This document shows positions 1-47,206 of a stretch of 64,000 bases of DNA, in pieces. The stretch's first letter is position 1; each line of letters opens with the position of its first letter. Where the stretch lies: contig CAYTBK010000006.1 of NCBI GenBank assembly GCA_964436005.1, positions 2,212 through 66,211 of the forward strand, written 5' to 3'. The translations under genes were made by a program, and so were the position numbers. The notes under the pieces are model-generated. The model did not search any database. It had not been told where the DNA came from and saw nothing but the letters and a program-made list of their open reading frames with translations. The stretch comes from an uncultured Acidobacteriota bacterium. GTDB lineage: Bacteria; Acidobacteriota; JAAYUB01.

Positions 1-1532
1 ACGCGGATCAGGGTGGTTTTGCCCGCCCCGTTGGGCCCCAGGAGGCCGACGATGCTGCCCCGCGGGACGCACAGGTCGACGCCGTCCAGCGCGGTGATGC
101 GGCCGAACTTTTTCGTCAGGTTGCTCACCCGGATCGCCGGTTCCGGGGCCGGTCCGCCGGCCGAGGGGCCTCGCCCCCGCCCCGGCGGCTCCGCCCCGCC
201 GCCGGGGGGACGGGGTTCTTCTTCCCGATAGCAGGAGCGCAGGGTGTCCAGGGTCAGGACCGGCAGGCCGTCGTGCAGCAAACCCCATCCCGGCCGCCGG
301 CCGGTGAGGAGAAGCCCCTCGTCGCTCACGCCGGCCCGGGCGGCCAGTTCCCGTTTCCGGCGCCGGAGGAGGGCCGGCAGGGCCCCGAGAAACCGCAGAT
401 ACCCCCGCAGGTAGGCGGCGGACAGGGCGAAGTTTCCCCGGCGGAGAAGGTGCCGCAGGGCGGCGGCGTCCTCGCGCAGGTAGTTGCCCAGGGCCCGCTT
501 CAGCGTTGTCCGCTCCAGGTTCTTGCAGGCGAAGTACAGGCGGTTGCCCACCACGAAGCGGAGCTTGAAACCCTCCGCCCGGCGGCCCATGGAGGCACCG
601 CCCTTGTGGTAGACCACGGCGGCGGGGGCGGCGTGGACCGGGAACCCCCGGAACTGCGCCCGGTAGCACCAGTCCATGTCCTCGTAGTAGAAGCGGTAGA
701 ACTCGTCCAGGCCCCCGATCCGCGCGACGGTGCCCCGGTTGAGCAGGGCGGCGGCGAAGCAGGCCGAAGGGGAGTTTTTCACACCGTCGAACTGGTTCAG
801 GTCCAGAAAGCCGAAAAAGTTGTCGGCGCCCCAGTCGTGGTCCCGGACAGCGTTGCCGATGGAGTTGATAAAGCAAGGGTTATCATGGTACAGGATCTTC
901 GGTGCGATGGCGGACCACCGCTCGTACTGCCCGGCCGCCCGGACCAGCTCGAGCAGCGCGTTCCGGTCCAGGACCGTGTCGTTGTTGAGCAGCAGGACGA
1001 ACTCCCCCCGCGCCCGGGCCAACCCTGCGTTCACCGCGGCGGCGAACCCGGCGTTCCGTTTCATCTCCACCAACCGCACGCCCGCCGCCCGGCTGCGCAG
1101 GAGGGGGCGGGAGCCGTCGCGCGAATCGTTGTCCACCACCACGACTTCGCGGTCGGGGTAGCTCTGGCGTTCCAGCGAGTCGAGCAGTTCCGGCAGATGC
1201 TCTTCCCCGTTGTAGTTGACGACGAGGATGGAGACCAGCGGCGTGCGGGAAAGGGGGGCGGCCTCGGCGCCGGCCCGGTCCGGGGCCTCCGCCGGCGGTT
1301 CTGCCTCGAGGGCCCCGAGACGAACCATGGCCAGCAGAAAGACCGCCAGGAGCGGGCGGTCGAGGGCGCTCTTCTCCGCGATCTCCTCCTCCGTGTGGTG
1401 GTCGATGCTCTCGAGGAGGCGCCGGGTGAGTTCGTCGATGAGTACGCGGCCCCTCCCGGCCCGCTCGAGAACGATGTGCGGGCCGGTTTCCCGGATTTCC
1501 CACTGGCTGGACCTGGTGTACCGCTGGATCAT
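1..1532 (-). CDS. Multidomain protein, N-terminal ~510 aa in window: PqqD/RRE-like N-terminal segment + family-2 glycosyltransferase (GT-A) domain + Pro/Gly-rich linker + ABC transporter ATP-binding domain; C-terminus lies beyond window start
   Basis: Own translation of minus-strand frame from ATG 1532..1530 ([75 protein letters not shown]...[41 protein letters not shown]...GFAAAVNAG...[17 protein letters not shown]...[74 protein letters not shown]). No stop codon down to nt 1. Absent from ORF track only because the frame is open at the window edge (no other minus-strand ORF >=60 aa in this frame). In-frame upstream stop TAG at 1604..1602. GT2 motifs and Walker A are unambiguous; the PqqD-like assignment is by eye. 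Confidence 0.6.
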
Positions 1533-1639
1533 GCTGCGCCCTTGTCGCGCGGTCCGCTCACCCGCCGGGCCGGCCCGGCGGTCGCAACTTCGCCGCCTCC
1601 ACTATACCCGACTTCCCCGGCGGACGGCGCCTTCTTCAT
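1529..1639 (-). CDS. Candidate 36-aa small [39 protein letters not shown], translationally coupled between GT4 gene and the RRE-GT2-ABC fusion gene (possible precursor peptide or coupling ORF)
   Basis: ATG at 1639..1637 overlaps GT4 stop TGA (1638..1636) as ATGA. Its stop TGA 1531..1529 overlaps the ATG 1532..1530 of the downstream gene as ATGA. Ser/Thr/Gly-rich. Open frames are common by chance in high-GC DNA, hence low confidence. Confidence 0.2.
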
Positions 1640-2997
1640 CGAATGGGCCGGCGGGTAATTTTCTGCTTCAGGACTCGCCCGACCCGGCGAAGAAGGCGGC
1701 GGAGCAGATCGAGGCTGCGCATGTTTTCTTCGGAGAAGCGGATTTCTCCCGCCTGGCGGAGCATGTCCAGCAGGGAAGGGAGCAACTCCGCCGCCGGGGC
1801 GCGGGCTGGCTGGGGGCCTTTCGCCAGCACACGCCTGTGGAGGTCTTCGAAGCGTCGGACCGCCTGGGCGGCGGAGAAGCGTTCCCGGGCCTGCTGCCTG
1901 GCCGTCTCCCCCATCGCCTTGCGCAGGTCGGGGGATTCCCACAGCGCGCGGAGTCGCCCGGCCATGCCGGCGACGTCGCCGCAGGGCACCAGGTAGCCGG
2001 TCACACCGTCCTCGACGACTTCTTCCGGGCCGCCGCACCGGGTGGCCACGACGGGTTTGCCCGCCGCCATGGCCTCGATGCAGACCAGGCTCAGGTTTTC
2101 GTTGTGGGAGGGGTGCAAGAGCACGTCGAGGCTGCCGAGCGATTCGGCCGTGGACGGTTGAAAGCCTACGAAGTGGACGCGGTCGGAGACACCGAGGCGT
2201 TCCGCCTGTCGCCGGGCGGCCTCGGCCGCCCACGGTTCGGTGACGTTTCCGATCCAGGCGAACATCACGTCGGCACCGGAGGCGACGAGGCGGGCGGCCA
2301 CTTCGACGAAGCCTTCGGGGTTCTTGCGCAGCCCGAGGGACCCGACCGCTCCCACCAGCATGGTGCCCTCCCGGCAGCCCAGGGCCCGCCGCAGGGTCGG
2401 AGATCTTTCCGCGGGCGCCCCGGCGAAGTCCTCGACCGGGATCCCGCCGATTATCGTTTCCACTTTTTCGCCGCCGATGAAGCCCCTCACCCGTCTGCCC
2501 AGGTAGCCGGAAACGGCCGCCACCCCGTCGGAGAGCAGGTCCACCAGGGCGAAGACGGCCGGCACGGAGAGATAGGAGCTCAAGGTCTCGTTTTCCAGGA
2601 GGTTTTCGGTGACGTGCCAGACGTGGGGCCTCTTCGCCCGGGCGGCGGCCAGGGCCCCGTCGACGACGACGACGGTGTTGGTCTGGACCAGGTCTACCTC
2701 CTCCCGCTCGATGATGCGGGCGATGGTTTCCACGTTTTCCGGCAGGCCCCGCAGCAGCCGGCAGAGGTGCCGTTCGCTTTTCCAGCGCACCCCCGGCACC
2801 CACCATTCCATGGGCACCGACACGGTGCGCACGCCCAACGCTTCGATGCGGTCCTGCAGAACGCCTTCGCCCGGCAGCACGACCAGGGGATCCCACCGAT
2901 CGCGGTCCAGGAAGCGGAGGTGGTTCAGCAGGCACATCTCGGCGCCGCCCATGGCCGAAGAGTGGGAAACGAAAAGGACCCGGCTCTTACCCGTCAT
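1636..2997 (-). CDS. Glycosyltransferase family 1 / GT4 (GT-B fold)
   Basis: C-terminal 453 aa of track ORF 1636..4938 starting MTGKSRVLFVSHSSAMGGAEMCLLNH...; GT4 core EAMAAGKPVVATRCGGPEEVVEDGVTGYLV. The N-terminal 647 aa of the track ORF is read-through antisense junk. ATG 2997 overlaps upstream gene stop (ATGA). Confidence 0.8.
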   Translation of the reverse strand: MTGKSRVLFVSHSSAMGGAEMCLLNHLRFLDRDRWDPLVVLPGEGVLQDRIEALGVRTVSVPMEWWVPGVRWKSERHLCRLLRGLPENVETIARIIEREEVDLVQTNTVVVVDGALAAARAKRPHVWHVTENLLENETLSSYLSVPAVFALVDLLSDGVAAVSGYLGRRVRGFIGGEKVETIIGGIPVEDFAGAPAERSPTLRRALGCREGTMLVGAVGSLGLRKNPEGFVEVAARLVASGADVMFAWIGNVTEPWAAEAARRQAERLGVSDRVHFVGFQPSTAESLGSLDVLLHPSHNENLSLVCIEAMAAGKPVVATRCGGPEEVVEDGVTGYLVPCGDVAGMAGRLRALWESPDLRKAMGETARQQARERFSAAQAVRRFEDLHRRVLAKGPQPARAPAAELLPSLLDMLRQAGEIRFSEENMRSLDLLRRLLRRVGRVLKQKITRRPIR

Positions 2998-5222
2998 CTT
3001 CCCGCTCCTTCGTGCCGGAGTATCCTCGCCAGTTCGAGCGGCAGGCGCCAGAGCCTTCGCGGGTGCGCCAGGGCGAAGCGGACCGCGCTCCGGAGCCGGC
3101 AGACCCGGGCCTCTTTCCAGTCCACCAGGCGGGACCGCCACGGCCGCGCCCCGTACTGGTAGTTCTGCACCAGGAAGGCGTAGATTTCTTCGCCGAAGAG
3201 GTGGTAGAGCGGCCCGTGGCGCCTGGCGATGTCGGCCAGGGCGATCCTGTGCCCGTCGCCGGTGGCCGAGTGGTAACGGGACCGGCGCTGAATCCGGTAG
3301 TCGTACACGGTTTCGGGCAGGTTGACGCCCAACCAACCCTGCTCGACCATGGACATGAACGCGTCGTAATCCTCCCCCACCGACGGCAGGGTCTGCCCCG
3401 GCCAGGCGCGGCGGCGGATCAGGCTGGGGCCCATGGCCTGGTTCCGCAGCAGGAACATGGGCAGGTCCACGTCGGTAATGACCCAGGTGAAGGATTTCCC
3501 GCCGAAGGCTTCGACCCAGCCTCCGACGAAGCCAACGTTGGCATACCGTTTCAGCACGGCCGCCGCGTGTTCGAAATAGGACGGCCGGACCCGGTCGTCG
3601 GCGTCCACGAAGCAGAGGAACTCCGCGTCCGACGACCGCCCCCACCGGTTGCGGATGGCCACCGGGCCCTGGTTGCGCGGCTCCCGGACCCAGTGAACCT
3701 CCCAGCCTTTGTCGGAAACGGTCTCCTTCTGCAGGGCCGCGAATTCCTCCCGCGAACGCGGGTCTGTGGATGCGTCGTCGACCACCGTGAGGCGGATCGG
3801 CCGGTAGGTCGAGTTCCGGATGCTGTCCAGGGCCTCCCGGAGGAACCGGCCGTGATTGAAGCAGGGCATGACGACGTGGATCAGGCCGGCCACGGTCTCT
3901 CCGCCCCGGCTTTCGGTCGGCGGCGCCGGCACGGCGGCGAAACGGCGCCGGTCGGCGAAGGGGGAGGCGGGAAAGGTCCCGGGGCCTTCGGAGTGGCTGC
4001 GCTCCACGGTTTCCCGGCAGATTCGCTCGTAGACCGGCAGGGCGTTTTTTACGGATACCAGGCGGCACACCCGCCGGTTGGCGCTGTCGCCCCATTCGGC
4101 CAACTCTGCCGGCGAGGCGGCGAGGACCCGTTTGAGGGCCTGGGCGAGCCCCCGTTCGTCCTCGTACAGGAAACCGGAAGACCCGGGCTCGACCAGTTCG
4201 GTGTGCCCGCCCCGGTCGGAAGCGATGACGGGCCGGCCGTACGACATGGCCTCGATGCAGGTGTGTGACAGCGATTCCATCAGGGTGGGCAGGACCACGG
4301 CCCGGCTCTGGGCCAGGGCGTTCCGGACGGTCTCGAAATCCTCGGCGTGCGGTAGGATGCGGAGCAGTCCCCGGCGGATGTACCTTCCGTACTCTGTCCG
4401 GATGTGGGTGGCCATGTCCGTTCCCCGCGGCGGATACCACTGGCTCGCGCCCTGCAGCTTGAGCACGAAGGAGAGCCCTTCGTCCCAAAGCCCGGCGCAG
4501 GTCTGCAGCAGGGTCAGGATCCCCTTCAGGTAGCTGAGTTGGCCGAAGTACAGCAGTTCGTCGTTGTCGCAGGGGGGGAGACGGTTTTCCGGCACGGCGT
4601 GGGCCGAGCAGGTGTAGTAGACCGGCGGCCGGGGGAGGTGGAACCGCTCGCTGATCCGGTCCGCCATGAACTGGGAGACGGCGAACCGGTTGTCCGAGCC
4701 GACCAGCTGGTACGCCTGGCGCTGCCGGAGCAGCATGCGGGGCCAGGAGAAGGCCAGGTCTCGGTCCTGCTCGTACATGGCGAACTGGTTGGAGTGGCAC
4801 GAGGTGAGGATGGGCGCCGCGGCTTCGGGGTACCCGAGCCGCCGGTGCTGCACGAAGAAATAGCCCAGCGCCTTGAAATCGTGCGCGTCGATGATGTCCG
4901 GCACGAATCCCCCGGCCGCGAGGTGGGCGTACTCGCACCAGTACTGGTAGAGCTCGGCCAGCGGGGCGTCGGCATTCAGGAAAACCTGGTGGGCCCTTTC
5001 GCCGTAGGGGTGGCGCGGGCCGAAGCGGAGGTCGCCCAGGGCGAACTCATGGCAGACCACGCTGGCCCGGACGCTCGTCCGGCGGTGCCCCGTCAGGCAC
5101 AGGACGTGGACTTCGTGACCCTTCCCGGCCAGGGCCGAGGCCGTGTGGGAAATCGCCGTGCCCAGCCCGTACCCCTTGGGCGAGAGGCCGGGGTAAGCGG
5201 TGGTCAGGAACAGGATCTTCAT
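2994..5222 (-). CDS. Two-domain glycosyltransferase: N-terminal GT4 (MKILFLTTAYPGLSPKGYGLGTA...) fused to C-terminal GT2 (HVVMPCFNHGRFLREALDSIRNSTYRPIRLTVVDDASTD)
   Basis: Track ORF 2994..5900; real start MKILF at 5222 (residue 227), preceded by GGAGG RBS at 5224-5228 (minus sense). ATGA overlap with the next gene upstream. Confidence 0.8.
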   Translation of the reverse strand: MKILFLTTAYPGLSPKGYGLGTAISHTASALAGKGHEVHVLCLTGHRRTSVRASVVCHEFALGDLRFGPRHPYGERAHQVFLNADAPLAELYQYWCEYAHLAAGGFVPDIIDAHDFKALGYFFVQHRRLGYPEAAAPILTSCHSNQFAMYEQDRDLAFSWPRMLLRQRQAYQLVGSDNRFAVSQFMADRISERFHLPRPPVYYTCSAHAVPENRLPPCDNDELLYFGQLSYLKGILTLLQTCAGLWDEGLSFVLKLQGASQWYPPRGTDMATHIRTEYGRYIRRGLLRILPHAEDFETVRNALAQSRAVVLPTLMESLSHTCIEAMSYGRPVIASDRGGHTELVEPGSSGFLYEDERGLAQALKRVLAASPAELAEWGDSANRRVCRLVSVKNALPVYERICRETVERSHSEGPGTFPASPFADRRRFAAVPAPPTESRGGETVAGLIHVVMPCFNHGRFLREALDSIRNSTYRPIRLTVVDDASTDPRSREEFAALQKETVSDKGWEVHWVREPRNQGPVAIRNRWGRSSDAEFLCFVDADDRVRPSYFEHAAAVLKRYANVGFVGGWVEAFGGKSFTWVITDVDLPMFLLRNQAMGPSLIRRRAWPGQTLPSVGEDYDAFMSMVEQGWLGVNLPETVYDYRIQRRSRYHSATGDGHRIALADIARRHGPLYHLFGEEIYAFLVQNYQYGARPWRSRLVDWKEARVCRLRSAVRFALAHPRRLWRLPLELARILRHEGAGR

Positions 5223-6208
5223 GCCTCCCCTCCCATGGCGGCGGCCCCGGGGGAGCCGGGTTCCGGCCTGCTTCCGTCCCTGGCCAGGAAGGCCCGGGCC
5301 AGCGGCCTGGCCACCCGCACCAGGAGGGGCACGGCCACGGCCCGCGGGCCGAACAGGTGGTTGAGGAGGAAGGAAGCCTTCAGTTTGTCCATGGTTTCGA
5401 GCCAATCCTTTGCCAGGGCTTTGTCCAGGTCGCTGGCGGGGAGGCCGCGCAGCACCTCGGCCACCGGGAACCCGCAGAGGTCGATCCGGTAGCGGGCGGC
5501 CAGCGCCGCCAGACCGCGGTGTCCTCCCGGCCCGCCAGCCGGGAGGGGGAGCGGGACGGTTTCTCCCGCGACCCGGTGGCGGTCGACAAGGCAAGAAAAC
5601 AGGGCGGGCGAGCGGTCGGCGAGCACGGCGCGCACGCCACCCGCCGGCGGGAGCGGGGGGGACTTGCGTACGGCCTGCCAGGGGGCCCCCGGTTCGGGGC
5701 GGCGGGCGAACACTCTTCGGCGGCATCCTATCACCACGGGGGCGATGGAGGACCGGGCCCGGAGCACGAGTCGCTCCAGGGCGCGGTGGTACAGCGCGTC
5801 GCGGTGGGTGTGGCAGAAGAGGTAGCGGCCTTCGGCCTGCCGGAGGCCCTCCGCCGCCAGGGGGACCGTTTCCTCTTCGCCGTGTCCAGCTTCGCCCCAC
5901 ACGACGCGGTGCCGCCCCACCTCCAGGACGGCCGTGCCTTCGTGGACGGGCCGGACGGGGTGGGGTGAGGACGGGGGGGCCGGAAAGGGCTGCCGTCGGA
6001 TGATCCCGGCGATTTCTTCGGCCAGCCCCGCCGTCCCGTTCCGGACCACGACCACCGCCTGCAGGGAGGCCAGGGAACAGGTGGCCAGGCCGAAGAGGGC
6101 CCTGTTTAGGAGTTCCGCGTCGTCCTGAACGGAGAATACGACGACGGCGCTGACCCCCTCAGCGGTCCCTTCCTGGGTTTTCGCCTGGCCGGGGCGGGGG
6201 TTCACCAT
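5219..6208 (-). CDS. Glycosyltransferase-like protein (GT-A/GT2-like; VVVFSVQDD...VVVVRNGTAGLAEE)
   Basis: C-terminal 329 aa of track ORF 5219..7099 starting MVNPRPGQAKTQEG at 6208; weak GT2-like motifs, family assignment tentative. Confidence 0.5.
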   Translation of the reverse strand: MVNPRPGQAKTQEGTAEGVSAVVVFSVQDDAELLNRALFGLATCSLASLQAVVVVRNGTAGLAEEIAGIIRRQPFPAPPSSPHPVRPVHEGTAVLEVGRHRVVWGEAGHGEEETVPLAAEGLRQAEGRYLFCHTHRDALYHRALERLVLRARSSIAPVVIGCRRRVFARRPEPGAPWQAVRKSPPLPPAGGVRAVLADRSPALFSCLVDRHRVAGETVPLPLPAGGPGGHRGLAALAARYRIDLCGFPVAEVLRGLPASDLDKALAKDWLETMDKLKASFLLNHLFGPRAVAVPLLVRVARPLARAFLARDGSRPEPGSPGAAAMGGEA

Positions 6209-7038
6209 CGGCAGCCCGCAAAGGCGAAATTTCGGTCGAACCGGGCCACCCGGGCCGCCGCGGCCGGCGGGATCCTTCCCTCGTCGGCGGGAAGCGCGGG
6301 AAGTTCTTGCGGTGATCGGAAGAATTTCCGGGAGAGGAGAAGCTTTTCGCAGTGGAGCTGGAATTCTTCCATGTGCCACTTCCAGGCCAGGCGCCGCCCG
6401 GACTCCAGTTGGCGCCGCTCCACCAGCGGGTCGCCTCCGCGGTCCCGGACGTCGTGCGCGAAGAGCGCCGCCGGGCACACTTTGGTGGAGAACCCGCCCA
6501 GGCGCGCCCGCCACGAGAAATCCACGTCCTCCATGTACAGGAAAAAACCGGGGTCGAAAGGCCCGATGGCCTCGTAAACGGCCCGCGGGACGAGCAGGCA
6601 GCACGCCGAGCACCAGGGGGTGTCGAACTGGAGGGGGTCGTACTCCTTGGGGTGTTCTTCCGGGAACTGCAGGGCTTCGATCAGGGCGGTCGGGAATCGC
6701 CGGTTGAATTCGAGGAGCGCCGCCAGGGCCCGGTGGTGGAAGGCGCCGTCGGGGTTGGCGCAAAGGAAGGCCTGGGCGTGGAGGTCTTCGAAAGCGTGCC
6801 GCATGAGCCGATTGGTGGACACGGCGAACCCGACGTTCCCCTGCGGTTCCAGCACGGTTGCCGCGGGGGTGCAAAGGGCGAGGCCCGGGTCGCCGTGATT
6901 GTCGACGCAGGCGAGGGCGATTTCGCATTCGGCGGGCAACTCGGCGGCGGCGAGGCGGCAGGAGCGGGCCAACCGCTCCAGCTGGTCCGGTGGGTTGGCG
7001 TACGTCGTAACTCCCACAACGATTGTTGTTCCTCGCAT
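6202..7038 (-). CDS. Glycosyltransferase family 2 (rhamnosyltransferase-like motifs)
   Basis: Track ORF 6202..7386, real start MRGTTIVVGVTTYANP at 7038; motifs GNVGFAVSTNR and FFLYMEDVDFSWRARLGGF. Confidence 0.7.
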   Translation of the reverse strand: MRGTTIVVGVTTYANPPDQLERLARSCRLAAAELPAECEIALACVDNHGDPGLALCTPAATVLEPQGNVGFAVSTNRLMRHAFEDLHAQAFLCANPDGAFHHRALAALLEFNRRFPTALIEALQFPEEHPKEYDPLQFDTPWCSACCLLVPRAVYEAIGPFDPGFFLYMEDVDFSWRARLGGFSTKVCPAALFAHDVRDRGGDPLVERRQLESGRRLAWKWHMEEFQLHCEKLLLSRKFFRSPQELPALPADEGRIPPAAAARVARFDRNFAFAGCRW

Positions 7039-7099: not shown

Positions 7100-8098
7100 T
7101 CAACCCAACGCGTCGGTCGGGTCGGCCGGCCTCGCCTCCGCCGCCGGCCGGGAGAGGGGAGCCAGATTCCCCCGGTGGCAGGGCAGGCCTTTTCTTGCCT
7201 CGTGGAAAAAAGACCGGGACCAGATGGCGGCGCCGGCCAGGTAGAGCGGCCAGCGCAGGCACAGGACCCCCAGGGAACGGCGGTCGTGCCGGAACAGCCA
7301 GCGGGCGGCCTTCGCGAGGCGGACAAAGGGCATGGTGAACGCCAGCGGCGGGAAGCGGATGGCCGTGTGGACGGGCAATCCGGCACGGTTGCGCGCCCGG
7401 GCCGACCACTCGCCCAGGTCGCGCTGGTAGGCCAGCATTTCGCCCAGCCGGGCGTGCTTGCAGTGCAGCACCTCGATGGCCGGGTCGAACAGGATGCGCT
7501 CTCCCGCTTTGTGCAGCCCCCAGTGGAACAGGACGTCCTCGGATAACCGCATGTCGTCGTCGTATCCCCCGTGCCGCTCGAAGACCTCGCGGCGGTACAT
7601 GATGATGGCCGTGGGGACCGACGCCTCCGTCCGCCGGGGGCAGGCGGGCATGAACTCGCGGAACTCGAGGTGGTAGGCGACCCAGTCGGCCGCGCTCATG
7701 GGCGATTCCTGGCGCAGCGCCCCGCCCACCGCCGCGTACGCTCCCTCGGCGTGCCGGGCCAGCATGCGCTCGATCATGTCCGGGAAGGCGACACAGTCGG
7801 AATCCAGCATCAGGCAGAACGGGGAGCGGCTGGCGCGGACGCCGGCGTTGCGGGCCGCCCCGGCGAACGTGCGCCGGGGAAAGCGGATCAGGCGGACGGA
7901 GGGGAACTCCCGTTCCACGATCTGCGGCGTTTCGTCTTCCGAGCTGTCGACCACCAGGATCTCGAAGGGGACGGCCGTGTCCTGGCGCAACAGGGACTGG
8001 AGACAGGCCCGGATGGTCCGGGCCGAGTTGTAGCAGGGTACGATAACCGTGACCAGCGGGTCTGTTTCCGGTGCGGAACGTACTTCTCGCGACGCCAT
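7100..8098 (-). CDS. Glycosyltransferase family 2
   Basis: Track ORF 7100..8185; start MASREVRSAPETDPLVTVIVPCYNSARTIRACLQSLLRQ at 8098; classic GT2 N-terminal motif and DSD. Confidence 0.8.
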   Translation of the reverse strand: MASREVRSAPETDPLVTVIVPCYNSARTIRACLQSLLRQDTAVPFEILVVDSSEDETPQIVEREFPSVRLIRFPRRTFAGAARNAGVRASRSPFCLMLDSDCVAFPDMIERMLARHAEGAYAAVGGALRQESPMSAADWVAYHLEFREFMPACPRRTEASVPTAIIMYRREVFERHGGYDDDMRLSEDVLFHWGLHKAGERILFDPAIEVLHCKHARLGEMLAYQRDLGEWSARARNRAGLPVHTAIRFPPLAFTMPFVRLAKAARWLFRHDRRSLGVLCLRWPLYLAGAAIWSRSFFHEARKGLPCHRGNLAPLSRPAAEARPADPTDALG

Positions 8099-8245: not shown

Positions 8246-9037
8246 TCAACCGTTGGATTCGGCCACGATGTACTCCTTCCGGCGGAAGATCCATGCACCC
8301 AGCAGCAGGGCCACGGCGCCCGTCAGCAGGGGCACCAGGATGGAAACGACCGTTCCGGAGGCCTCGAGGTGGAAGGTCATGGGCCCGCGGGCCTGGTCGA
8401 TCTGGGGCAGGAGGGACTTGAGGTAGTGGATGATCGTCAGCTTCTGGGTGACGCCCGGCATGAACTGGATGATGCTTTCCCAGCCGAAGACGAAGATGAG
8501 GCCGGTGAGGATGGGCCGCTTCAGGAAAGCTCCCAGCAGGGCGAAGAGGGCTGTGTAGGCGAAGACGGCCAGCAGGCCGACGAAGAAGGTGCAGTAGAAG
8601 CGCCCCCAGCGGTCGGCGGAGGCGAGGCCGGCCGGGTCCGCGGCCAGGAAGGCGGCGAACAGGCTGAAGGCCGCGATGAGCGCGGCCACCCCGCTGTAGG
8701 CCAGGGCCTTGCCCAGGAAGATGCCGCAGCGTGGGGCCGGGCGGGTGATGAGGTAGACCAGCGTCTTGTCCTCGATCTCGTCGGAGACGACGGTGGAGCC
8801 GTAGAAGAGCGCCAGCACGGGGATCAGCAGCTGGAAGAAGAACGACGGCAGCGGACCGGTGAAGAAGGTCTCGGCGGGGATGTCGGTGGCGTGGGACAGG
8901 GTGGCCACCAGCCGGATGACGCCGAGTATCGCCGCCGGGATCACCCCGATGACGAAGAAGGCCCGGGTGCGCTTCGAGCGCAGGGACAGCCGGCCGAAAG
9001 CGCCGGCGGTGATGCGGATGCCGTGAGCCAGTTTCAT
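8246..9037 (-). CDS. ABC-2 type transporter permease
   Basis: 263 aa, six predicted TM helices, follows the ATPase with 2-nt gap. Confidence 0.7.
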   Translation of the reverse strand: MKLAHGIRITAGAFGRLSLRSKRTRAFFVIGVIPAAILGVIRLVATLSHATDIPAETFFTGPLPSFFFQLLIPVLALFYGSTVVSDEIEDKTLVYLITRPAPRCGIFLGKALAYSGVAALIAAFSLFAAFLAADPAGLASADRWGRFYCTFFVGLLAVFAYTALFALLGAFLKRPILTGLIFVFGWESIIQFMPGVTQKLTIIHYLKSLLPQIDQARGPMTFHLEASGTVVSILVPLLTGAVALLLGAWIFRRKEYIVAESNG

Positions 9038-9039
9038 GG

Positions 9040-9963
9040 TTACCTCCCCACCAGGTAGTCGAAGATGGCCTGGAGGTTGTCGTCGGGGGAGGTGAGTTCC
9101 TCCACCGCGAGGTCCTGTTCGGCGATGGCCTGCGTGAGTGCTTCGAAGCAGGGGTCCTGCCGGTCCGTGGACAGGGTGAGCCCGTTCTCCCCGTCCAGGG
9201 AGACGCTCCGGACGGCCGGGTGCCCGATCATCCGCTCGGCCAGCAGGCGCGCTCGGTCACAGCGGACGAATATCTGGTGCGGGTGGTCGTCGAGGAGGTT
9301 GCGGATAGTGTGGATGTCCCCCTGGGCGAAAACTTTGCCCTGGTGGATGAGGACGATCTCCTCGGTCAACCCCTCCACTTCCGGGAGGATGTGGGAGGAC
9401 ACCACCACTGTCTTCCCTTCGGCTTCCAGTTCCTTGAGCATCTTCGATATGCGGATGCGCCAGAGCGGGTCGATGCCGCGGAGCGGTTCGTCCAGCAGCA
9501 GCACCTCGGGGTCGTGCACGAGGCAGGCGGCCAGACGCAGGCGCTGCCGCATGCCGAAGCTGTAGGCCTTGACCTGCCGGTGGGCGTTGTCCTGCAGCCC
9601 GACCTTCTCGAGCGCCTCGCCGGCCCGTGTTTTGGCCTGGCCGCCTTCGAAGCCATGCAGGTGGGCCATGAAGAGGGTGAATTCCCCCCCGGTCATGTCG
9701 GGGTAGAAGCTGTCCGCCTCCGGGCAGACGCCGATGCGGGAGAAGACGTCCGGGTTGGCGAAGACGTCCTCGCCGAGCACCCGGATTTTGCCGATGCTGG
9801 GCTTGAGCTGGCCGGAAACCAGTTTCAGGAAGGTGGACTTGCCGGCGCCGTTGGGCCCCAGGAGGCCTTTGATGCCAGGGCGGATCTCCAGGTTGATCTC
9901 GCTGACGCCCAGGATGTGCCCGTACCACTTGGAAAGGTTTTCGGCGGTGATGACAGCGTTCAT
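9040..9963 (-). CDS. ABC transporter ATP-binding protein
   Basis: MNAVITAENLSKWYG...[12 protein letters not shown]...LLLDEP; start at 9963 (C-terminal 307 aa of track ORF 9040..10785); ATGA overlap with upstream permease. Confidence 0.85.
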   Translation of the reverse strand: MNAVITAENLSKWYGHILGVSEINLEIRPGIKGLLGPNGAGKSTFLKLVSGQLKPSIGKIRVLGEDVFANPDVFSRIGVCPEADSFYPDMTGGEFTLFMAHLHGFEGGQAKTRAGEALEKVGLQDNAHRQVKAYSFGMRQRLRLAACLVHDPEVLLLDEPLRGIDPLWRIRISKMLKELEAEGKTVVVSSHILPEVEGLTEEIVLIHQGKVFAQGDIHTIRNLLDDHPHQIFVRCDRARLLAERMIGHPAVRSVSLDGENGLTLSTDRQDPCFEALTQAIAEQDLAVEELTSPDDNLQAIFDYLVGR

Positions 9964-10814
9964 GCCGTGGCCTCCGCGCGCCGGATGCGCAGGTAGAGAA
10001 ACAGGATCGCCAGCAGCGCCGCCGCGGCGAGGATGACGACGGAGTACGCGGGATCCACCGCGAACTCCCTTTCCTGACCGAAGAAAAAAGCCCCGGTGTG
10101 GTTGATGTTGCGGTTGACGGAGAGCAGGTGCCAGCCCTCCATGTGGGTGATCTCGGTGAGGATGGCCGCCACGGCGTCCGAGAAGAAGAACACGGCCACC
10201 AATATGATGCGGACGAAGTTGAGCCGTTCGCTCAAGGTCGAGAGGAAGAGGGTCATGGCGGCCAGGAAGAGACCGACCAGCAACGGGAAGGCCACCATGG
10301 CCAGCCAGAGGTCTGGTTTCAGGATCAGGCTGCCGGAGAAGACCATCTTCAGGATGAAGAGGACAATTCCCGGGACGAGGGTGAAGAGCAGCAGGTAGAA
10401 GAGCACGGTGGACAGCTTGCCGGCGAGGTAGCCGGTACGGGAGAGGGGCCGCGAGAAGTATAGCGGCAGGGCCCGCAGGCGGAGGTCCCCCGAGATCAGC
10501 CCCGCCCCGCTGAAGATGCACAGCACCACCAGGATGAAAATCAGGAAGTTGTTGGTGTAGAACATGTGGAAGATGGAGGCGTCCGACTGGAGGCTGCGCA
10601 CCAGGCGGGAGAACATCTTCAGTTCCGGCTTGGCCACCGCGTAGATGACGGCCAGGAAGAACAGGAAGGGCGTGGCGCCAAGGAAGAAGACGAGCCCCGC
10701 GTACTTCTGCCTGGCCACCCGCCGGATGCCGTTGCGCAGGATCGGGAGCCAGCGCATCCCCGGGCGGGTGACTTCGCCTTCCCACCCCATGTAACCTTTC
10801 TGCCTAATTCCCAT
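9960..10814 (-). CDS. ABC transporter permease (ABC-2-like)
   Basis: 284 aa polytopic membrane protein; overlaps neighbours on both sides. Confidence 0.7.
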   Translation of the reverse strand: MGIRQKGYMGWEGEVTRPGMRWLPILRNGIRRVARQKYAGLVFFLGATPFLFFLAVIYAVAKPELKMFSRLVRSLQSDASIFHMFYTNNFLIFILVVLCIFSGAGLISGDLRLRALPLYFSRPLSRTGYLAGKLSTVLFYLLLFTLVPGIVLFILKMVFSGSLILKPDLWLAMVAFPLLVGLFLAAMTLFLSTLSERLNFVRIILVAVFFFSDAVAAILTEITHMEGWHLLSVNRNINHTGAFFFGQEREFAVDPAYSVVILAAAALLAILFLYLRIRRAEATA

Positions 10815-11727
10815 GATTTTCCTCCACGGCCTGGATGAAGGCCTCCTCCAGGGTGATGCGGCTGCGCTGCAGGCGACGGATCTGCACGCCGCACCGGCGG
10901 GCCGCCCGGAACAGGGTCCGGGTGGTCTCCCCCGGGGGGAGTTCGACGCGGTAGTTTTCCCGTTCCTTCTCCTCCAGGCGGCAGCGGGCCTCCTCCAGTT
11001 CAGCCCGGAACGGCCCCGCCTCCCCCTTGAAAGCCAGGTCGAACACCTCGCCCATGGCGGGGTGCAGGTCGCCCACGGGCTTTTCCGCCACCACCCGGCC
11101 GTTGTCCATTATCACAACATCTTTGCATGTCGACTCTAGGTCCGGCAGCAGGTGGGTGGAGAGGATGATGTTCTTCCCCTCGGTGGCGGCGATGTCGCGG
11201 ATCAGTTCCAGCATGGCCTGGCGCCCGGCCGGGTCCATACCGGAGGTGGGTTCGTCGAGGAGCAGCATGCCGGGATCGTGGACGATGGCCTGGGCCAGCT
11301 TCAGGCGTTGCCGCATGCCGGTGGAGTAGGTCTCCACCAGCCGGTAGCGGGCCTCCTCCAGCCCCACGTAGTAGAGGACGTCGTGGGCCCGCTTGATGGC
11401 CTCCCGGCGCGGCATGCCGCTCAGTTCGCCGAGGTAGGCGGTGAATTCCACCGCGTCCATGCCCGGCAGCAGGGAGTCGCTCTCCGGCATGTAGCCGACG
11501 TTGCGGCGGAATTCCCGGAGGTCGCCCCCCAGGCCCTGGCCGAACACCGAGCCGGTGCCGGACGAGGGCCGCAGGAAGCCCAGCAGGATCTTCATGAGGG
11601 TCGTCTTGCCGGCGCCGTTGGGGCCCAGCAGCCCGTGGATGCCCCCGCCGATGCGCAGGCGGACGCCGTCCAGGGCGGTCACGTCGCCGTAGCGGAAGCG
11701 GATGTCGTCGAGGATGATCATTTCCAT
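10804..11727 (-). CDS. ABC transporter ATP-binding protein
   Basis: MEMIILDDIRFRYGD...[15 protein letters not shown]...LLLDEPTSGMD; start at 11727 (or MIILDD at 11721). Confidence 0.85.
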   Translation of the reverse strand: MEMIILDDIRFRYGDVTALDGVRLRIGGGIHGLLGPNGAGKTTLMKILLGFLRPSSGTGSVFGQGLGGDLREFRRNVGYMPESDSLLPGMDAVEFTAYLGELSGMPRREAIKRAHDVLYYVGLEEARYRLVETYSTGMRQRLKLAQAIVHDPGMLLLDEPTSGMDPAGRQAMLELIRDIAATEGKNIILSTHLLPDLESTCKDVVIMDNGRVVAEKPVGDLHPAMGEVFDLAFKGEAGPFRAELEEARCRLEEKERENYRVELPPGETTRTLFRAARRCGVQIRRLQRSRITLEEAFIQAVEENHGN

Positions 11728-14022: not shown

Positions 14023-16170
14023 ATGAAGTGGTGGACGAAGAATGTTTTCCGGCCGGCGAGGCTGCTCCTGCCGTTTTTCCTGTTCCTTTCCGGCGCCCCA
14101 GCGGCCGCCACCCTCCCCACGGCGGCTGTTGGCCCGGCCGGGGCGACCGCCGCACCCCCGCCCTGCCCGGGGGGGCAGCCCAAGGATGGCCCGCCGATCT
14201 ACTACGGGCCCTCCTACGAGTACGAGTTCACCCAGGACACCCTGGCCATGTCCGACGGCGTCCGCCTGGCCGTCAGCTACTGGAAGCCCGTGCCCCGCTG
14301 CGCCTGCGAGAAGTTCTCCGTCGTGCTGGAGATGCTCCCCTACCGCAAGGACGACAGCTCCTACAGGTCCGAGTACTCCCAGAACGCCTACCTCGCCCGT
14401 CGGGGCCTCGCAGCGGCCCAGGTCGACGTCCGCGGCACGGGGTCCTCCGAGGGCCGGCTGGTGGAGCGGGAGTACTCGAACGCGGAACTGCAGGACATCC
14501 AGGAAGTCATCGAGCTGCTGGCCCACCAGCCCTGGTGCAATGGCCGGGTGGGCATGATCGGCATGTCCTGGAGCGCCTTCAACGGCATCATGACCGCCAT
14601 GCGCCGGCCCCCGCACCTGGGCGCCCTCTACGCGATGCACGGCTCCGAGGACATCTACGGCAACGACATCCACTACATCGACGGCGCCATGCACCTGGAC
14701 ATGTACTCCATCGAGATGGAGACGGAAAACCCCGCTCCCCGGGCCCCGGACTACCGGCTGGACGAGGCCTATTTCCGCGACCGCTTCGACGCCGAGCCCT
14801 GGATCTTCACCTACATCCGCCACCAGCGGGACAGCGGGTGGTGGGAGGACGGGCGCTCGCTGGACACCGACTACGCGGCCATCGACATCCCCGTCTTCGT
14901 CGTGGGCGGGCTGCTGGACGGCTACCGAGACTTCGTCCCCCACATGCTGGAGAACATGGGCGTGCCCATGCGGGGCGAGATCGGCACCTGGAATCACGAC
15001 TGGCCCGTGGGCGGTTCGCCCGGGCCCAACTACGAGAGCCGCCAGACGGCCGTGCGCTGGTTTCACCACTGGCTGAGCGGCCATCGCAACGGCGTCATGG
15101 ACGAGCCCCGCTTCACCGTGTTCGTCCGGGGCAGCGTGCCCGCCTCCACCGAGATCGCCACCACCCCCGGCGAGTTCCGGGCGGGGGACTGGCCCTTCCC
15201 GGGCAGCCATGTCGTCCGGTACTTCCCGCAGGGGGACCGCTCTCTCCAGCCGGCCCCCGGCCCTTCCGCGCGTCACGTCCTCGCCTACCAACCCGGGACG
15301 GGCACAGAGGTGGGGAACTGGTGGGGGGAGGTGACGGGCGACATGCAGGGCGCCGATGCGGCCGCGCTGGCGTACGACTCGCCGGAAATGGAGGCGAGCC
15401 AGGTGCTGGTGGGCATTCCGCGCGTCCGGCTGACGGTCTCCAGCGACGCGACCCTGGCCCACTGGATGGTGCGGCTGGAGGACGTCCACCCCGACGGAAG
15501 CGTCTCCCTGGTCACCGGCGGGCTGATCAACGGCGCGCAGCGCCGCTCCCGCCGCGAACCGGAAGCGCTGGTCCCGGGCCAGGAGGTGGAACTCCTCATC
15601 CCCCTCCACTTCACCACCTGGACCTTCGAGAAGGGGCACCGCATCCGGCTGGCCGTCACCAACGCCCAGTTCCCCATGATCTGGCCCACGCCCTACGCCA
15701 TGACCACCACCCTGGTCCTGGGCGGCGGGGCCTCGGAACTGGAGCTCCCCTTCGTCGACGCCGCGGCCCGCCCGCGCATGCCCGTCCTCCTGATCCCCGA
15801 GCCGGAGGAGGAGGCCCCGGACGCCCGCTACATCGATTCCGGCAGTTCCACCCGGACGCTGGTGCGGGACAACTTCACCACCGTGACCAGTGGGGAGAAT
15901 CACGAGTACGAGGTGCACGGCCGGCGGTACCGCACCTCGGAGCAGCTGGTCTACCGCACCTGCGCCGACAATCCCGCCGACTCCTCCTTCCGCGGGGAAG
16001 GGGAGTGGAAGATGACGGCGGGCGGCCGGGTGGTCCAGGTGAAGGCGGAGGTGGACGTCCGCTCAGACGCAACGGTCTTCCGTGTGAGGGTGAAACGCCG
16101 GGTTTACGAGAACGGGGCCCTGGTTCGCGAAAAGGAGTGGCGGGAGGACATCCCCCGGGATTTCCAGTAA
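14023..16170 (+). CDS. CocE/NonD family hydrolase (S15 X-Pro dipeptidyl-peptidase-like), secreted
   Basis: Signal peptide; LPYRKDD...YLARRGLAAAQVDVRGTGSSEG...GMIGMSWSAF serine nucleophile elbow; GGGAGG RBS upstream. Confidence 0.8.
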   Translation: MKWWTKNVFRPARLLLPFFLFLSGAPAAATLPTAAVGPAGATAAPPPCPGGQPKDGPPIYYGPSYEYEFTQDTLAMSDGVRLAVSYWKPVPRCACEKFSVVLEMLPYRKDDSSYRSEYSQNAYLARRGLAAAQVDVRGTGSSEGRLVEREYSNAELQDIQEVIELLAHQPWCNGRVGMIGMSWSAFNGIMTAMRRPPHLGALYAMHGSEDIYGNDIHYIDGAMHLDMYSIEMETENPAPRAPDYRLDEAYFRDRFDAEPWIFTYIRHQRDSGWWEDGRSLDTDYAAIDIPVFVVGGLLDGYRDFVPHMLENMGVPMRGEIGTWNHDWPVGGSPGPNYESRQTAVRWFHHWLSGHRNGVMDEPRFTVFVRGSVPASTEIATTPGEFRAGDWPFPGSHVVRYFPQGDRSLQPAPGPSARHVLAYQPGTGTEVGNWWGEVTGDMQGADAAALAYDSPEMEASQVLVGIPRVRLTVSSDATLAHWMVRLEDVHPDGSVSLVTGGLINGAQRRSRREPEALVPGQEVELLIPLHFTTWTFEKGHRIRLAVTNAQFPMIWPTPYAMTTTLVLGGGASELELPFVDAAARPRMPVLLIPEPEEEAPDARYIDSGSSTRTLVRDNFTTVTSGENHEYEVHGRRYRTSEQLVYRTCADNPADSSFRGEGEWKMTAGGRVVQVKAEVDVRSDATVFRVRVKRRVYENGALVREKEWREDIPRDFQ

Positions 16171-19039: not shown

Positions 19040-19426
19040 ATGATGATGGTGACCATCCTGAAAATAGTGCCGTTGAGCGGGAAACGGGGAGCCGTGTTGG
19101 GGATCCTCCGGTCCGTCGAGAGCCTGTTGTCCGGATGCGCGGGGTGTGTGGACTGCGCCGTCTTCGAGCAGCCGGGGAAAGACAAGGCGGTCGTTTATTT
19201 CGACCGGTGGCGCACGAGAGATGACCTCCGCCTTTTCATCCAGTCCAGCCTCTACCATCGGCTGCTGCTGGCCATGGAACTCGGGGCGCGGGCCCCGGAA
19301 CTCGGTTTCTACGAGGTGACGGAAACCGGCGGGCTGGGCTGGATCCAGGAACAGCGGACGGAAAAGGCGGACCCGGACGGGGGGGATGCGCCTGCGAGAC
19401 AGGCGCAGACAGGAAAGACGGAATGA
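19040..19426 (+). CDS. ABM-domain (antibiotic biosynthesis monooxygenase-like, dimeric alpha+beta barrel) protein
   Basis: MMMVTILKIVPLSGKRGAVLGILRSVESLLSGCAGCVDCAVFEQPGKDKAVVYFDRWRT...; paralog of 36794..37123 (MTMITVLKIVPAGGKK...GCLDCLILER...LYLDRWST...AMEL...FYEV.ET). Start chosen by alignment with the paralog. Confidence 0.6.
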   Translation: MMMVTILKIVPLSGKRGAVLGILRSVESLLSGCAGCVDCAVFEQPGKDKAVVYFDRWRTRDDLRLFIQSSLYHRLLLAMELGARAPELGFYEVTETGGLGWIQEQRTEKADPDGGDAPARQAQTGKTE

Positions 19427-19509
19427 AACGGCAGGAGGCCCGCCCGGGAAATTTCCGGCGAGGAGCGAGAATGGAAAATGCCGATGGACGTGACCACAGG
19501 AGGAAGAAA

Positions 19510-23465: not shown

Positions 23466-23948
23466 ATGGAAACGCAACAAGCCGAGAATCCGAACCTGGT
23501 CGCCGACGGGACCGACCAGACCAACGAGGGTCCGAACCTGGCCACCCGGTTGGCGGTGGGCCGCACCAGGCTGGCCGACGACCGCACGAAGATGGCCGTC
23601 TACCGGACGCACCTCGCCCTCGAACGCACGACCCTGGCCTGGGTTCGGACCGCCTTGACCATGGCTTCCTTCGGCTTCGGCATGGTCGCCTTCTTCCGCT
23701 CCCTGCGGCAGTCCCGGCAGAGTCTGGAAACGGCCCGGGTGCACCAGGTGGCCATCTGGTTCGGCGTGGCGCTGGTGGTGGTCGGGATCGTGTCCATGGC
23801 TCTTGCCGGGTTGTCGCACTGGCGCACCCTGCGCCGTCTCCGACGGGGCGAAACCCCGGTCCCGTCGCGCTGGCCGCTCAGCGTCACCGTCGCCGCGCTG
23901 CTCGCGGTCGGCGGGCTGTGGGGGCTGTTTTCCCTTCTGGCCCGCTGA
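23466..23948 (+). CDS. DUF202/YidH-family small membrane protein
   Basis: Repeated RTxLAxxRT motifs (RLADDRTKMAVYRTHLALERTTLAWVRTAL), 3 TM; GGAGGGA RBS. Confidence 0.7.
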   Translation: METQQAENPNLVADGTDQTNEGPNLATRLAVGRTRLADDRTKMAVYRTHLALERTTLAWVRTALTMASFGFGMVAFFRSLRQSRQSLETARVHQVAIWFGVALVVVGIVSMALAGLSHWRTLRRLRRGETPVPSRWPLSVTVAALLAVGGLWGLFSLLAR

Positions 23949-23961
23949 GAGGAGGAGGTCC

Positions 23962-25044
23962 ATGTCCAAACGAAAAGCCCTGGGGACAGTCGCAAGTACC
24001 TTGGCGATCCTTCTGGCGCTGGCCGGGTGCCGGGCCATCGGCCCGCCCACCATCCCGCGGGACCGTTTCGACTACAGCCGAACCATCGCCGATTCCTGGA
24101 AACAGCAGACCCTGCTCAACATCGTCAAAGTGCGGTACATCGACTTGCCCATCTTCCTGGATGTGGCCTCCATCGTCAGCGGCTACCAGTTCCACTCTTC
24201 CGCTTCCGTGGGGGGGACGGTCTATTCCAAGAACTCGATGCCCGGCACCGGCTTGACCCTCGGCGTCAGCGGGACCTACGTCGACCAGCCCACCATCACC
24301 TACGCCCCGAAGACCGGGGACAAGTTCCTGGAAAGCCTCGTCAAACCCATCTCCCCCGCCCGGATTTTCAGGATGGTCCAGGCCGGATACGCCATCGATT
24401 TCATCCTGGAACTTACCCTCGAATCCATATGTGGCGTACGGAACCGGGCCTCGATTCCCACCGGGCTCCGGCAAGCGGACCTGACCTTCTTCGAGGTGCT
24501 GACCCTGCTTCGGGAAGCCCAGGAAGCCGACGGTTTCGGTATGCGGATCGACTCGGAAGGCAAGGAGAGCCAGCTGGCCACCGCCCTGTTCTTCCGCCGA
24601 CAGGGGATGAGCCCGGAGGCCCTGGAAAAACTCAAAAAAATCAAGGAACTACTCAAGCTGCCCCCGGAGCGGGACACGTTCCGGCTGTTGCAATCCCCCA
24701 TCCGCGGGGAAGGCGATGAATTCACGGTGGCCCCCCGGTCCATGCTCCAGATTCTGATGGCCCTCGGCCAGGGCGTCGACATTCCGCAGGTGCACGCCGA
24801 CCGGAAACTCACCCCCCCCAAGGTGGCCGACGAGAACCGCCCAAAACCACTCCTGCACATCTACAGCGGCACCGAGAAACCGAAGAACGCCTATGCCGCC
24901 GTGCCTTACGAGGGGGCCTGGTTCTGGATCGCCCCCGACGACTGGGTCTCGAAGCGGTCTTTTGTCGCCATCATGTTTCTCTTCACGATGATGGAATCCG
25001 GGCAGCCGGAGATGCTGCCTGTCGTCACCATCCCGGCACGGTGA
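23962..25044 (+). CDS. Lipoprotein of unknown function
   Basis: MSKRKALGTVASTLAILLALAGC lipobox; GAGGAGGAGG RBS. Confidence 0.65.
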   Translation: MSKRKALGTVASTLAILLALAGCRAIGPPTIPRDRFDYSRTIADSWKQQTLLNIVKVRYIDLPIFLDVASIVSGYQFHSSASVGGTVYSKNSMPGTGLTLGVSGTYVDQPTITYAPKTGDKFLESLVKPISPARIFRMVQAGYAIDFILELTLESICGVRNRASIPTGLRQADLTFFEVLTLLREAQEADGFGMRIDSEGKESQLATALFFRRQGMSPEALEKLKKIKELLKLPPERDTFRLLQSPIRGEGDEFTVAPRSMLQILMALGQGVDIPQVHADRKLTPPKVADENRPKPLLHIYSGTEKPKNAYAAVPYEGAWFWIAPDDWVSKRSFVAIMFLFTMMESGQPEMLPVVTIPAR

Positions 25045-39427: not shown

Positions 39428-39516
39428 TGGTGCCGAAGGAGGGAATCGAACCCTCACGAGCATCGCTGCCCGCCGGATTTTGAGTCCGGTGCGTCTGCCA
39501 GTTCCGCCACTTCGGC
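39428..39516 (-). tRNA. tRNA-Leu (anticodon CAA), 89 nt with long variable arm and encoded CCA
   Basis: Minus-strand sequence GCCGAAGTGGCGGAACTGGCAGACGCACCGGACTCAAAATCCGGCGGGCAGCGATGCTCGTGAGGGTTCGATTCCCTCCTTCGGCACCA; 7-bp acceptor stem, anticodon loop CUCAAAA. Confidence 0.85.
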
Positions 39517-47023: not shown

Positions 47024-47206
47024 GGGTCCTCCAGGGGAGCAAATTAGGGGCCGGGGCGCATGGAATCGACATCTGTCAGGTAAGTCGCGACCAGCTTGCC
47101 CAGTCATAAAGAGTAAAGTATAGGGCAGGGGTTTCATTCATTCAAGCGAAAATTGGAACAAAGCTTTGGCGTTGACTTCCATCGGCAGATGCTCAAGAAT
47201 GGGGCC

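Follow-up and report, generated by a model that had tools for sequence, protein, structure and literature searches.

A probable lineage-specific fusion of an RRE-fold glycosyltransferase and an ABC-2 ATPase in a candidate glycan assembly operon of an uncultured Acidobacteriota bacterium

WbdA and WbbM are O-antigen glycosyltransferases (GTs) of glycan pathways that depend on an ATP-binding cassette (ABC) transporter. Fusions of a GT with another kind of domain, the recognition element (RRE) for peptides made by ribosomes and modified after translation (RiPPs), appear as candidate new RiPP clusters in RRE-Finder surveys (PMC7470986, Fig. S7; PMC12710340, RRE with PF00535). We analyzed a 64,000-nucleotide stretch of contig CAYTBK010000006.1 from an uncultured Acidobacteriota bacterium (hereafter the window), at the edge of which a single minus-strand gene encodes an RRE-like segment, a GT2 domain and an ABC ATPase. 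The original prediction had read this gene, together with a 36-codon open reading frame (ORF) in front of it, as a possible glycosylated-peptide (RiPP-like) module, and had offered as a fallback an ABC-dependent glycan pathway with an incidental short ORF. The fallback fits our results much better. The edge gene probably arose in this lineage, by the in-frame joining of two genes that were once separate, in an operon for the cytoplasmic assembly and export of a glycan.

The fusion gene starts at an ATG (1532-1530) and its frame is open to base 3, giving 510 codons in the window with no alternative upstream start in frame. The full protein, P0001, taken from the 69,390-bp NCBI contig, has 750 aa and is identical to the window protein over the shared part. 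Two Logan assemblies from different sequencing runs contain an identical locus, in which the same continuous frame extends to 534 and 627 residues, and the junction between the GT2 and ATPase parts has the same sequence in all three assemblies. The anticipated layout of an N-terminal segment of about 80 aa, a GT2, a Pro/Gly linker and an ABC ATPase, in one frame up to the window edge, was borne out by Pfam and by P0001. In the window protein, PF00535 is matched by residues 101-205 (88.2 bits against a cut-off of 23.3), PF13641 by residues 100-314 (53 bits) and ABC_tran PF00005 by the truncated ATPase start at residues 482-510 (28.7 bits against a cut-off of 25). The ATPase of P0001 has an intact Walker A, Q-loop, LSGG signature, Walker B and H-loop, with STHH read in both P0001 and L001, and ends in a DrrA-like C-terminus. 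The NCBIfam models DrrA, NodI, GldA and RbbA align on P0001 from residues 463-474 to approximately 688, and the ATPase begins at approximately residue 466, the exact start of the DrrA, NodI, GldA and LptB models.

The joining of the two parts was found in this organism only. Its orthologs (P0002-P0007 and P0011; 32 to 58% identity) consist of the N-terminal domain, the GT2 and a helical tail, and end at approximately residue 440 without an ATPase; the Pro/Gly junction linker has no counterpart in these seven proteins. No other GT2-ATPase fusion was present in a 5.8-billion-protein collection, in 185,579 representative genomes (one per GTDB species) or in the JGI metagenomes. Three loci considered as possible fused relatives (L018, L035 and L059) were rejected because in them Wzt is encoded by a gene of its own, upstream of the GT gene. 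L090, the closest syntenic locus, agrees with the operon in its GT genes and their order, with a 17-nt gap after the GT4 gene and with neither a small ORF nor ABC genes. Since no other fused protein was found and L090 is free of ABC genes, the fusion is, judged from these sequence comparisons, a recent and lineage-specific event that is restricted to this organism among the databases searched. Of the two things that the original prediction had asked of the fusion, continuity was seen in all assemblies of this organism, and conservation failed, the GT2-ATPase joining being absent from the orthologs.

Besides the fusion gene, the operon contains two ABC-2 permease/ATPase pairs and five GT genes (a GT2, two divergent GT-A-like genes, a GT4-GT2 fusion and a GT4). 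Profile scans with Pfam and NCBIfam and inspection of the sequences give at least seven GT domains in all. The gene order was derived from frame-specific G+C content at third codon positions (GC3) and from gene calls in the Logan assemblies, and this order bears out the earlier count, with five GT genes besides the fusion and two ABC-2 exporters. NCBIfam matches of the operon ATPases are of the DrrA/GldA type, and the starts and 4-nt overlaps of the exporter genes were checked. No Wzm (PF01061) or Wzt was found in the operon, the permeases being PF12679/PF12730 proteins and the DrrA/GldA-type ATPases having no Wzt_C domain.

The family to which the GT2 part of the fusion belongs was collected by searching 1.84 billion cluster representatives with a profile, which many of the proteins returned match from position ~5 to ~447. 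The N-terminal domain is present in about 60 of the 150 top-ranking representatives (clusters at 50% identity). The family comprises at least 60 such clusters in many phyla, and the hosts include Chloroflexota, Aminicenantes, Actinomycetota, Acidobacteriota, Omnitrophota, cyanobacteria, Clostridia and one archaeal metagenome-assembled genome (MAG). Membership in GT2 is evident from D134, D244, D285 and a YYEDxDW motif, all invariant in 55 sequences. A model of residues 1-445 (mean predicted local distance difference test score, pLDDT, 92.5; predicted TM-score, pTM, 0.92) has a GT-A core behind a low-confidence linker (81-98), followed by three long helices (318-397) and a short conserved tail. 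In this tail P424 is nearly invariant in the family, and invariant among the eight closest orthologs, and Y435 is likewise nearly invariant. The structural neighbors of the core are generic GT-A enzymes, among them PcManGT, ppGalNAc-T2 and GlfT2.

Two narrower assignments of the GT2 were rejected. Against the MftF model (TIGR03965, cut-off 280 bits) scores were 50 to 65 bits, mostly from the catalytic core, and the plain GT2 encoded at 7100-8098 scores higher, at 125 bits. The alignment of one ortholog to this model ran into the N-terminal domain, which we attribute to generic GT2 similarity, as the isolated domains gave no match. For the SunS-type peptide S-glycosyltransferases (TIGR04195, cut-off 350 bits) the best score was 35 bits, confined to the N-terminal part of the GT-A core. 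Matches to further named GT2 families likewise fell far short of the respective cut-offs and did not reach outside the core.

For the genomic context of the family, 49 loci were fetched in which the GT2 has the N-terminal domain. Wzm and Wzt homologs lie within 10 kb in 28 to 29 of these loci, and a GT4 homolog is present in 43. Representative loci encode Wzt with the carbohydrate-binding Wzt_C domain, S-adenosylmethionine (SAM) methyltransferases, a dTDP-sugar isomerase, sugar epimerases and dehydrogenases, as well as further GT2 and GT4 enzymes, Wzy_C proteins and a WecA-like transferase. The picture from the family loci, which are of an O-antigen-like kind, is that of cytoplasmic, ABC-transporter-dependent glycan assembly. 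The N-terminal domain also stands at the front of GT2-GT4 fusions of approximately 900 aa. In the L090 protein P0269 (10001-12223, 740 aa, 58% identity) the domain order is GT2, RRE-fold, GT2; downstream of P0269, both in convergent orientation, lie a gene for a 662-aa synthase-like GT2 and a gene of the major facilitator superfamily. In other polysaccharide loci the domain is a separate small protein, as in L121 (5507-5785; P0286, 92 aa) and L122 (8001-8321; P0296, 106 aa), and its gene lies directly upstream of, or overlaps, the GT2 gene. Stand-alone and fused forms thus mirror the dichotomy of discrete and fused forms known for true RREs.

The N-terminal domain forms a segment of about 80 aa at the start of all seven orthologs. 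In an alignment of 53 domain sequences D33 is invariant, and the conserved positions follow in the order GG, D, W, G, EI and AGLL. Residues 1-98 of the window protein have no Pfam match even at E<=10, and at the same threshold PF05402 is absent from the seven closest orthologs. Three of the 53 family members match PF05402 (best E 0.0035, below the gathering score), and one member matches a PqqD-family model of NCBIfam (E 0.056). With every PqqD match of Pfam and NCBIfam below threshold among the window protein, eight orthologs and the 53 domain sequences, PqqD membership by sequence profile was rejected. The best PDB profile match was to the lasso RRE TbiB1, over the full length, with an E value of 0.14.

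The predicted structure was clearer. An AlphaFold2 model of the domain, built from the alignment (pLDDT 95, pTM 0.81), has four strands, three helices and a final strand; it contains the three strands, three helices and winged-helix form of the RRE fold and is closest to solved RREs. The top ranks of a Foldseek search of the PDB were TbiB1, TruD, ThcOx, TfuB1, PbtF-RRE, McbB, TbtB, LynD, MccB and CteB, with TM-scores of 0.6 to 0.7 and no match at E<=0.001. Structure-match scores were 10.4 for TigE, 9.4 for MccB, 9.2 for PbtF-RRE, 8.9 for TbtB and MibB, 8.4 for TglI, 8.3 for TbiB1 and NisB, 8.2 for TfuB1 and 7.3 for PqqD. Solved RREs dominate both structure searches. Domains of non-RiPP enzymes are also among the matches (the carbamoyltransferases GdmN and NovN, the oxidase BmdC and the lysine methyltransferases Rv2067c and PKMT2), so the fold alone is no proof of a RiPP function. 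The proposed PqqD/RRE likeness therefore stood at the level of fold, in the AlphaFold2 model and the structure searches, and fell at the level of the PF05402 profile; the RRE assignment is supported by the modeled fold and marginal by sequence. The model of residues 1-445 suggests that the domain is packed rigidly on the GT core. The domain is an accessory module found family-wide. Most likely it docks a peptide segment in extended form, which would belong either to a partner protein or to the tail of the enzyme itself, and it is unlikely to read the leader peptide of a RiPP.

We infer a substrate, a coupling to export and a binding partner of the RRE-fold domain along the following lines. The seven or more GT domains of the operon would assemble a glycan on a lipid carrier in the cytoplasm, and the ABC-2 pairs would export it. 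The fused ATPase would tether the last transferase to the exporter, and may pair with a permease encoded just past the window edge. The RRE-fold domain would act as a clamp to which an extended segment docks, either from a partner or from the same enzyme. A more general version of this explanation is possible, and we put it forward tentatively: the RRE fold may have been recruited as a standard accessory module, fused or discrete, of a broad family of polysaccharide GT2 enzymes, in which it would clamp a peptide of a partner, an exporter or its own tail to organize or regulate glycan assembly, the transferase in the present organism being tethered to an exporter ATPase as well.

Several observations weigh against a glycan pathway organized in this manner. 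The PF12679-type permease of the window operon occurs in none of the 49 family loci, and since the window permeases are of this type rather than Wzm/Wzt, the export route proposed here is an extrapolation. No initiating phosphoglycosyl transferase (PF00953 or PF02397) was present among the window ORFs scanned, and it may be encoded elsewhere in the genome. The gene downstream of the fused ATPase, where the permease is expected, lies outside the window. With regard to the docking peptide, the C-termini of 16 GT4 partners share no common tail, and nearly all of the domain's closest matches in structure are true RREs that bind peptides, so that its ligand may be a peptide. Finally, a recent fusion in a single lineage could be functionally neutral or even harmful.

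Glycosylation of a protein or peptide encoded elsewhere, such as an S-layer protein, a pilin or a lipoprotein, would also make use of an RRE fold, as this is a peptide-clamp fold. The domain would then recognize a segment of the acceptor, and the GT2 would glycosylate it or prime a glycan. Peptide-acting ppGalNAc-Ts are among the GT-A neighbors of the core, a likeness that is generic to GT-A folds (TM ~0.5), and some family loci, such as L003 and L006, adjoin pilin-like or large surface-protein genes. No recurrent candidate acceptor gene was seen. The presence of Wzm/Wzt with Wzt_C, terminating methyltransferases and sugar-nucleotide genes points instead to the synthesis of a lipid-linked polymer, and we regard a protein acceptor as unlikely.

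The fusion itself could be non-functional, as the product of an assembly or sequencing indel in a linker rich in G/C homopolymers, or of a recent stop loss with read-through. The linker, a 25-residue Pro/Gly stretch after approximately residue 440 that has no stop in the fusion frame, resembles a translated GC-rich spacer with C6 and G5 runs, and a stop lies just before the ATPase core in another frame; the fusion is moreover unique in all databases searched. Set against this are the junction, which is identical in three assemblies that include two from separate sequencing runs, the intact motifs of both the GT2 and the ATPase, and a GC3 in the fusion frame that is high (0.84-0.95) over 101-700. 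The only start codon before the ATPase core is a GTG within the first strand; upstream of that strand there is none from which the ATPase could be translated independently. Given the three concordant assemblies, we hold the fusion in this organism to be probably real, with its functional value unproven, and a non-functional artifact to be quite improbable.

The 36-codon ORF in the spacer between the GT4 and fusion genes was found as described, with the translation exactly as quoted and ATGA overlaps at both ends: its ATG (1639-1637) overlaps the TGA of the GT4 gene (1638-1636), and its own TGA (1531-1529) overlaps the ATG of the fusion gene. Such 4-base ATGA overlaps are common in the operon (9960-9963, 5219-5222 and 2994-2997); wider spacings, of 61 and 147 nt, are seen as well. 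The GC content is 64-70% in the first 16 kb of the window and 61-70% overall. The GC3 of the ORF is 0.75, against 0.71 and 0.79 for the other two frames of the spacer and approximately 0.9 for the flanking genes. When the spacer was base-shuffled with the junction tetranucleotides fixed, the frame stayed open in 58% of the shuffles. Unlike its neighbors, of which the GT4 gene has an AAGGAG Shine-Dalgarno motif before its start, the ORF has no Shine-Dalgarno-like motif upstream, and the gene caller did not call it in the Logan assemblies. The spacer matches nothing in Rfam, contains no site resembling a promoter or terminator, and is not unusual in its folding energy (z = +0.38). A possible origin of the spacer as a remnant of the extra N-terminal GT2 domain of P0269 was rejected, since blastx gave noise only.

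Comparison with related loci gave no further sign of a gene. The conservation check that had been proposed for the ORF, a tblastn search, returned matches to the organism's own contigs only among 89 related loci, and the ORF is conserved in none of approximately 120 related loci. Of the two closest relatives, whose GT2 is 57 to 58% identical, L123 has an upstream gene that runs 4 nt into the GT2 gene, and L090 has one whose end is separated from the GT2 start by 17 nt. Where a GT4 gene lies directly upstream (18 loci), the gap to the first residue of the domain ranges from -14 to +88 nt and is mostly 23 nt or less. In nearly all orthologous loci the GT4 gene either overlaps the RRE-fold GT2 gene or is separated from it by no more than about 20 nt. 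Because it lacks both coding signal and conservation and is expected by chance, the ORF is most likely, as far as its sequence tells, a frame that is open by chance in the GC-rich spacer between two cistrons.

A precursor peptide was sought more widely among the 837 small ORFs of the 49 family loci (25-120 aa, not overlapping larger ORFs). No small-ORF family occurred in more than two locus groups, and thus no conserved precursor peptide is present among them. RiPP tailoring enzymes (radical SAM, YcaO, dehydratase, lasso cyclase and others) were found neither in the operon nor in loci L003, L004, L006, L009, L090, L121 and L122. The RiPP-like module, in which the 36-aa ORF or a nearby peptide would be a precursor with its leader bound by the RRE, glycosylated by the GTs and exported by the ABC-2 pairs, is thus very improbable: the leader-binding function of the nearest solved structures, the translational coupling of the ORF at both ends and the published proposals for RRE-GT fusions (PMC7470986, PMC12710340) are outweighed by an ORF that shows no sign of being a real gene and for which there is no room in the two closest relatives and approximately 13 independent orthologous loci, by the missing small-ORF family and tailoring enzymes, and by a family context of Wzm/Wzt polysaccharide loci.

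Table 1. Coordinates of the fusion gene, its parts and the other genes of the operon in the window
Feature	Position	Strand	Remarks
Fusion gene	1-1532	minus	Frame open to window edge
N-terminal RRE-fold domain, residues 1-80 of fusion protein	1293..1532	minus	
Linker (81-98), GT2 (GT-A) catalytic domain and C-terminal helical region (99-440)	213..1292	minus	
Pro/Gly-rich junction linker, residues ~441-465	138..212	minus	Only in this organism
Start of DrrA/GldA-type ABC-2 ATPase domain, residues 466-510 in window, to 750 beyond edge	3..137	minus	
36-codon ORF, most likely not a gene	1529..1639	minus	In spacer between GT4 and fusion gene
103-nt spacer	1533-1635		Between GT4 and fusion gene
GT4 glycosyltransferase, 453 aa	1636-2997	minus	Pfam GT4/GT1 families
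GT4-GT2 two-domain glycosyltransferase, 742 aa	2994-5222	minus	Pfam GT4, GT1, PF00535; syntenic with 741-aa gene of L090
Divergent GT-A-like gene, 329 aa	5219-6208	minus	GT-A likeness inferred from sequence only
Divergent GT-A-like gene, 278 aa	6202-7038	minus	YMEDVDFSWRAR motif, weak PF13641, weak TIGR03965
GT2 glycosyltransferase, 332 aa	7100-8098	minus	PF00535 107 bits; gene call from L001, start checked
ABC-2 permease	8246-9037	minus	PF12679/PF12730
ABC-2 ATPase	9040-9963	minus	PF00005
ABC-2 permease	9960-10814	minus	PF12679/PF12730
ABC-2 ATPase (first of operon)	10804-11727	minus	PF00005, DrrA1-3_C

Other features of the operon genes were recorded (Table 1). The overlapping gene pair at 5219-7038 falls below family thresholds and has a degenerate GT-A look, with YMEDVDFSWRAR retained in one of the two; both genes are syntenic in L090, and the 329-aa protein had no family match in profile scans. 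The C-terminus of the GT4 (window 1636-1800) is a basic, helical-looking extension of approximately 55 aa that is common to the GT4 of L090 and absent in 14 other partner GT4s. Just past the operon lies a separate S15 peptidase gene (14023-16170, plus strand).

Elsewhere in the window, a GT2-SAM methyltransferase fusion gene (47153-48643, plus strand) lies at a distance of approximately 45 kb from the operon. This pairing is also present within orthologous Wzm/Wzt loci, for example L009, and could be a chain-modifying or chain-terminating enzyme. A DGC-domain protein fused to a glycine-cleavage H-protein domain is encoded at 61372-62436 (plus strand), with a second DGC-domain gene at 62960-63646 (plus strand). 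A tungsten-type aldehyde:ferredoxin oxidoreductase (40653-43220, minus strand) suggests an anaerobe. A single tRNA gene is present at 39431-39516 (minus strand). Four large ORFs with a GC3 of 0.82-0.92 (19423-21942 and 23803-25044 on the plus strand, 50361-52232 and 57200-59287 on the minus strand) had no Pfam match at the thresholds used. The RNase III gene (45299-46075, minus strand) is also found on the 69,390-bp contig that encodes P0001, which identifies that contig as the source of the window. The nearest named relative of this RNase III comes from an Acidobacteriota MAG and is 57% identical, indicating that the lineage is poorly sampled.

The family bears on how RRE-like domains are read in genomes. 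A domain that is confidently RRE-shaped occurs family-wide in enzymes of ordinary polysaccharide loci, and an RRE fold is therefore no proof of a RiPP cluster. This is relevant to class-independent genome mining for RiPPs, which already lists RRE-glycosyltransferase fusions as candidates; on the genomic context presented above, we would argue that this RRE-fold GT2 family, at least, is not a RiPP cluster type. The results also define an uncharacterized GT2 family that standard PqqD profiles miss, in which a GT-A core stands between an RRE-fold domain and a helical tail, and which is usually paired with a GT4. The one-off GT2-ATPase fusion can be viewed as a natural experiment, suggesting that the last transferase and the exporter are physically coupled in ABC-dependent glycan export.

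Compared with known systems, the domain shares the fold of the RiPP RREs (the lasso B1 proteins TbiB1 and TfuB1, PqqD, NisB, LynD, MccB and TigE). Unlike these, it stays below the Pfam and NCBIfam PqqD thresholds, is accompanied by neither a precursor gene nor a tailoring enzyme, and resides in a polysaccharide context. In GdmN/NovN, the NRPS-associated oxidase BmdC and Rv2067c/PKMT2 an RRE-like domain is likewise joined to an enzyme whose substrate is not a RiPP precursor; the catalytic partner in our case is a GT2 and the pathway is a different one, in a family with no characterized member. The RRE-glycosyltransferase fusions proposed as RiPP candidates (PMC7470986, PMC12710340) have the same domain pairing and are uncharacterized, and it is by this pairing alone that we liken them to the present family, which differs from those proposals in escaping PF05402 and in residing in Wzm/Wzt loci.

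Among glycan enzymes, GlfT2, the mycobacterial galactan polymerase that works with a Wzm/Wzt-like exporter, is one of the best structural matches (TMq 0.51-0.53); its GT-A core, too, is preceded by an extra domain and followed by a helical one. Like the multidomain GTs of ABC-dependent glycan pathways, the members of our family are found in Wzm/Wzt loci and are often fused to further GT domains. The N-terminal domain has the RRE fold rather than that of the GlfT2 beta-domain, and the window operon differs from GlfT2-type pathways in its DrrA/GldA-type ABC-2 exporters and in its fusion to an exporter ATPase, for which there is no known counterpart among their members. The nearest parallel to the fusion itself was found among the homologs of the ATPase, in proteins of approximately 1,040 aa from Pseudonocardia and relatives that join a Peptidase_S15/alpha-beta hydrolase to an ABC ATPase. 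In them, too, a single polypeptide contains both a soluble enzyme and an ATPase of the ABC-2 type; the enzyme class differs, and their fusion is conserved across species whereas the one described here belongs to a single lineage.

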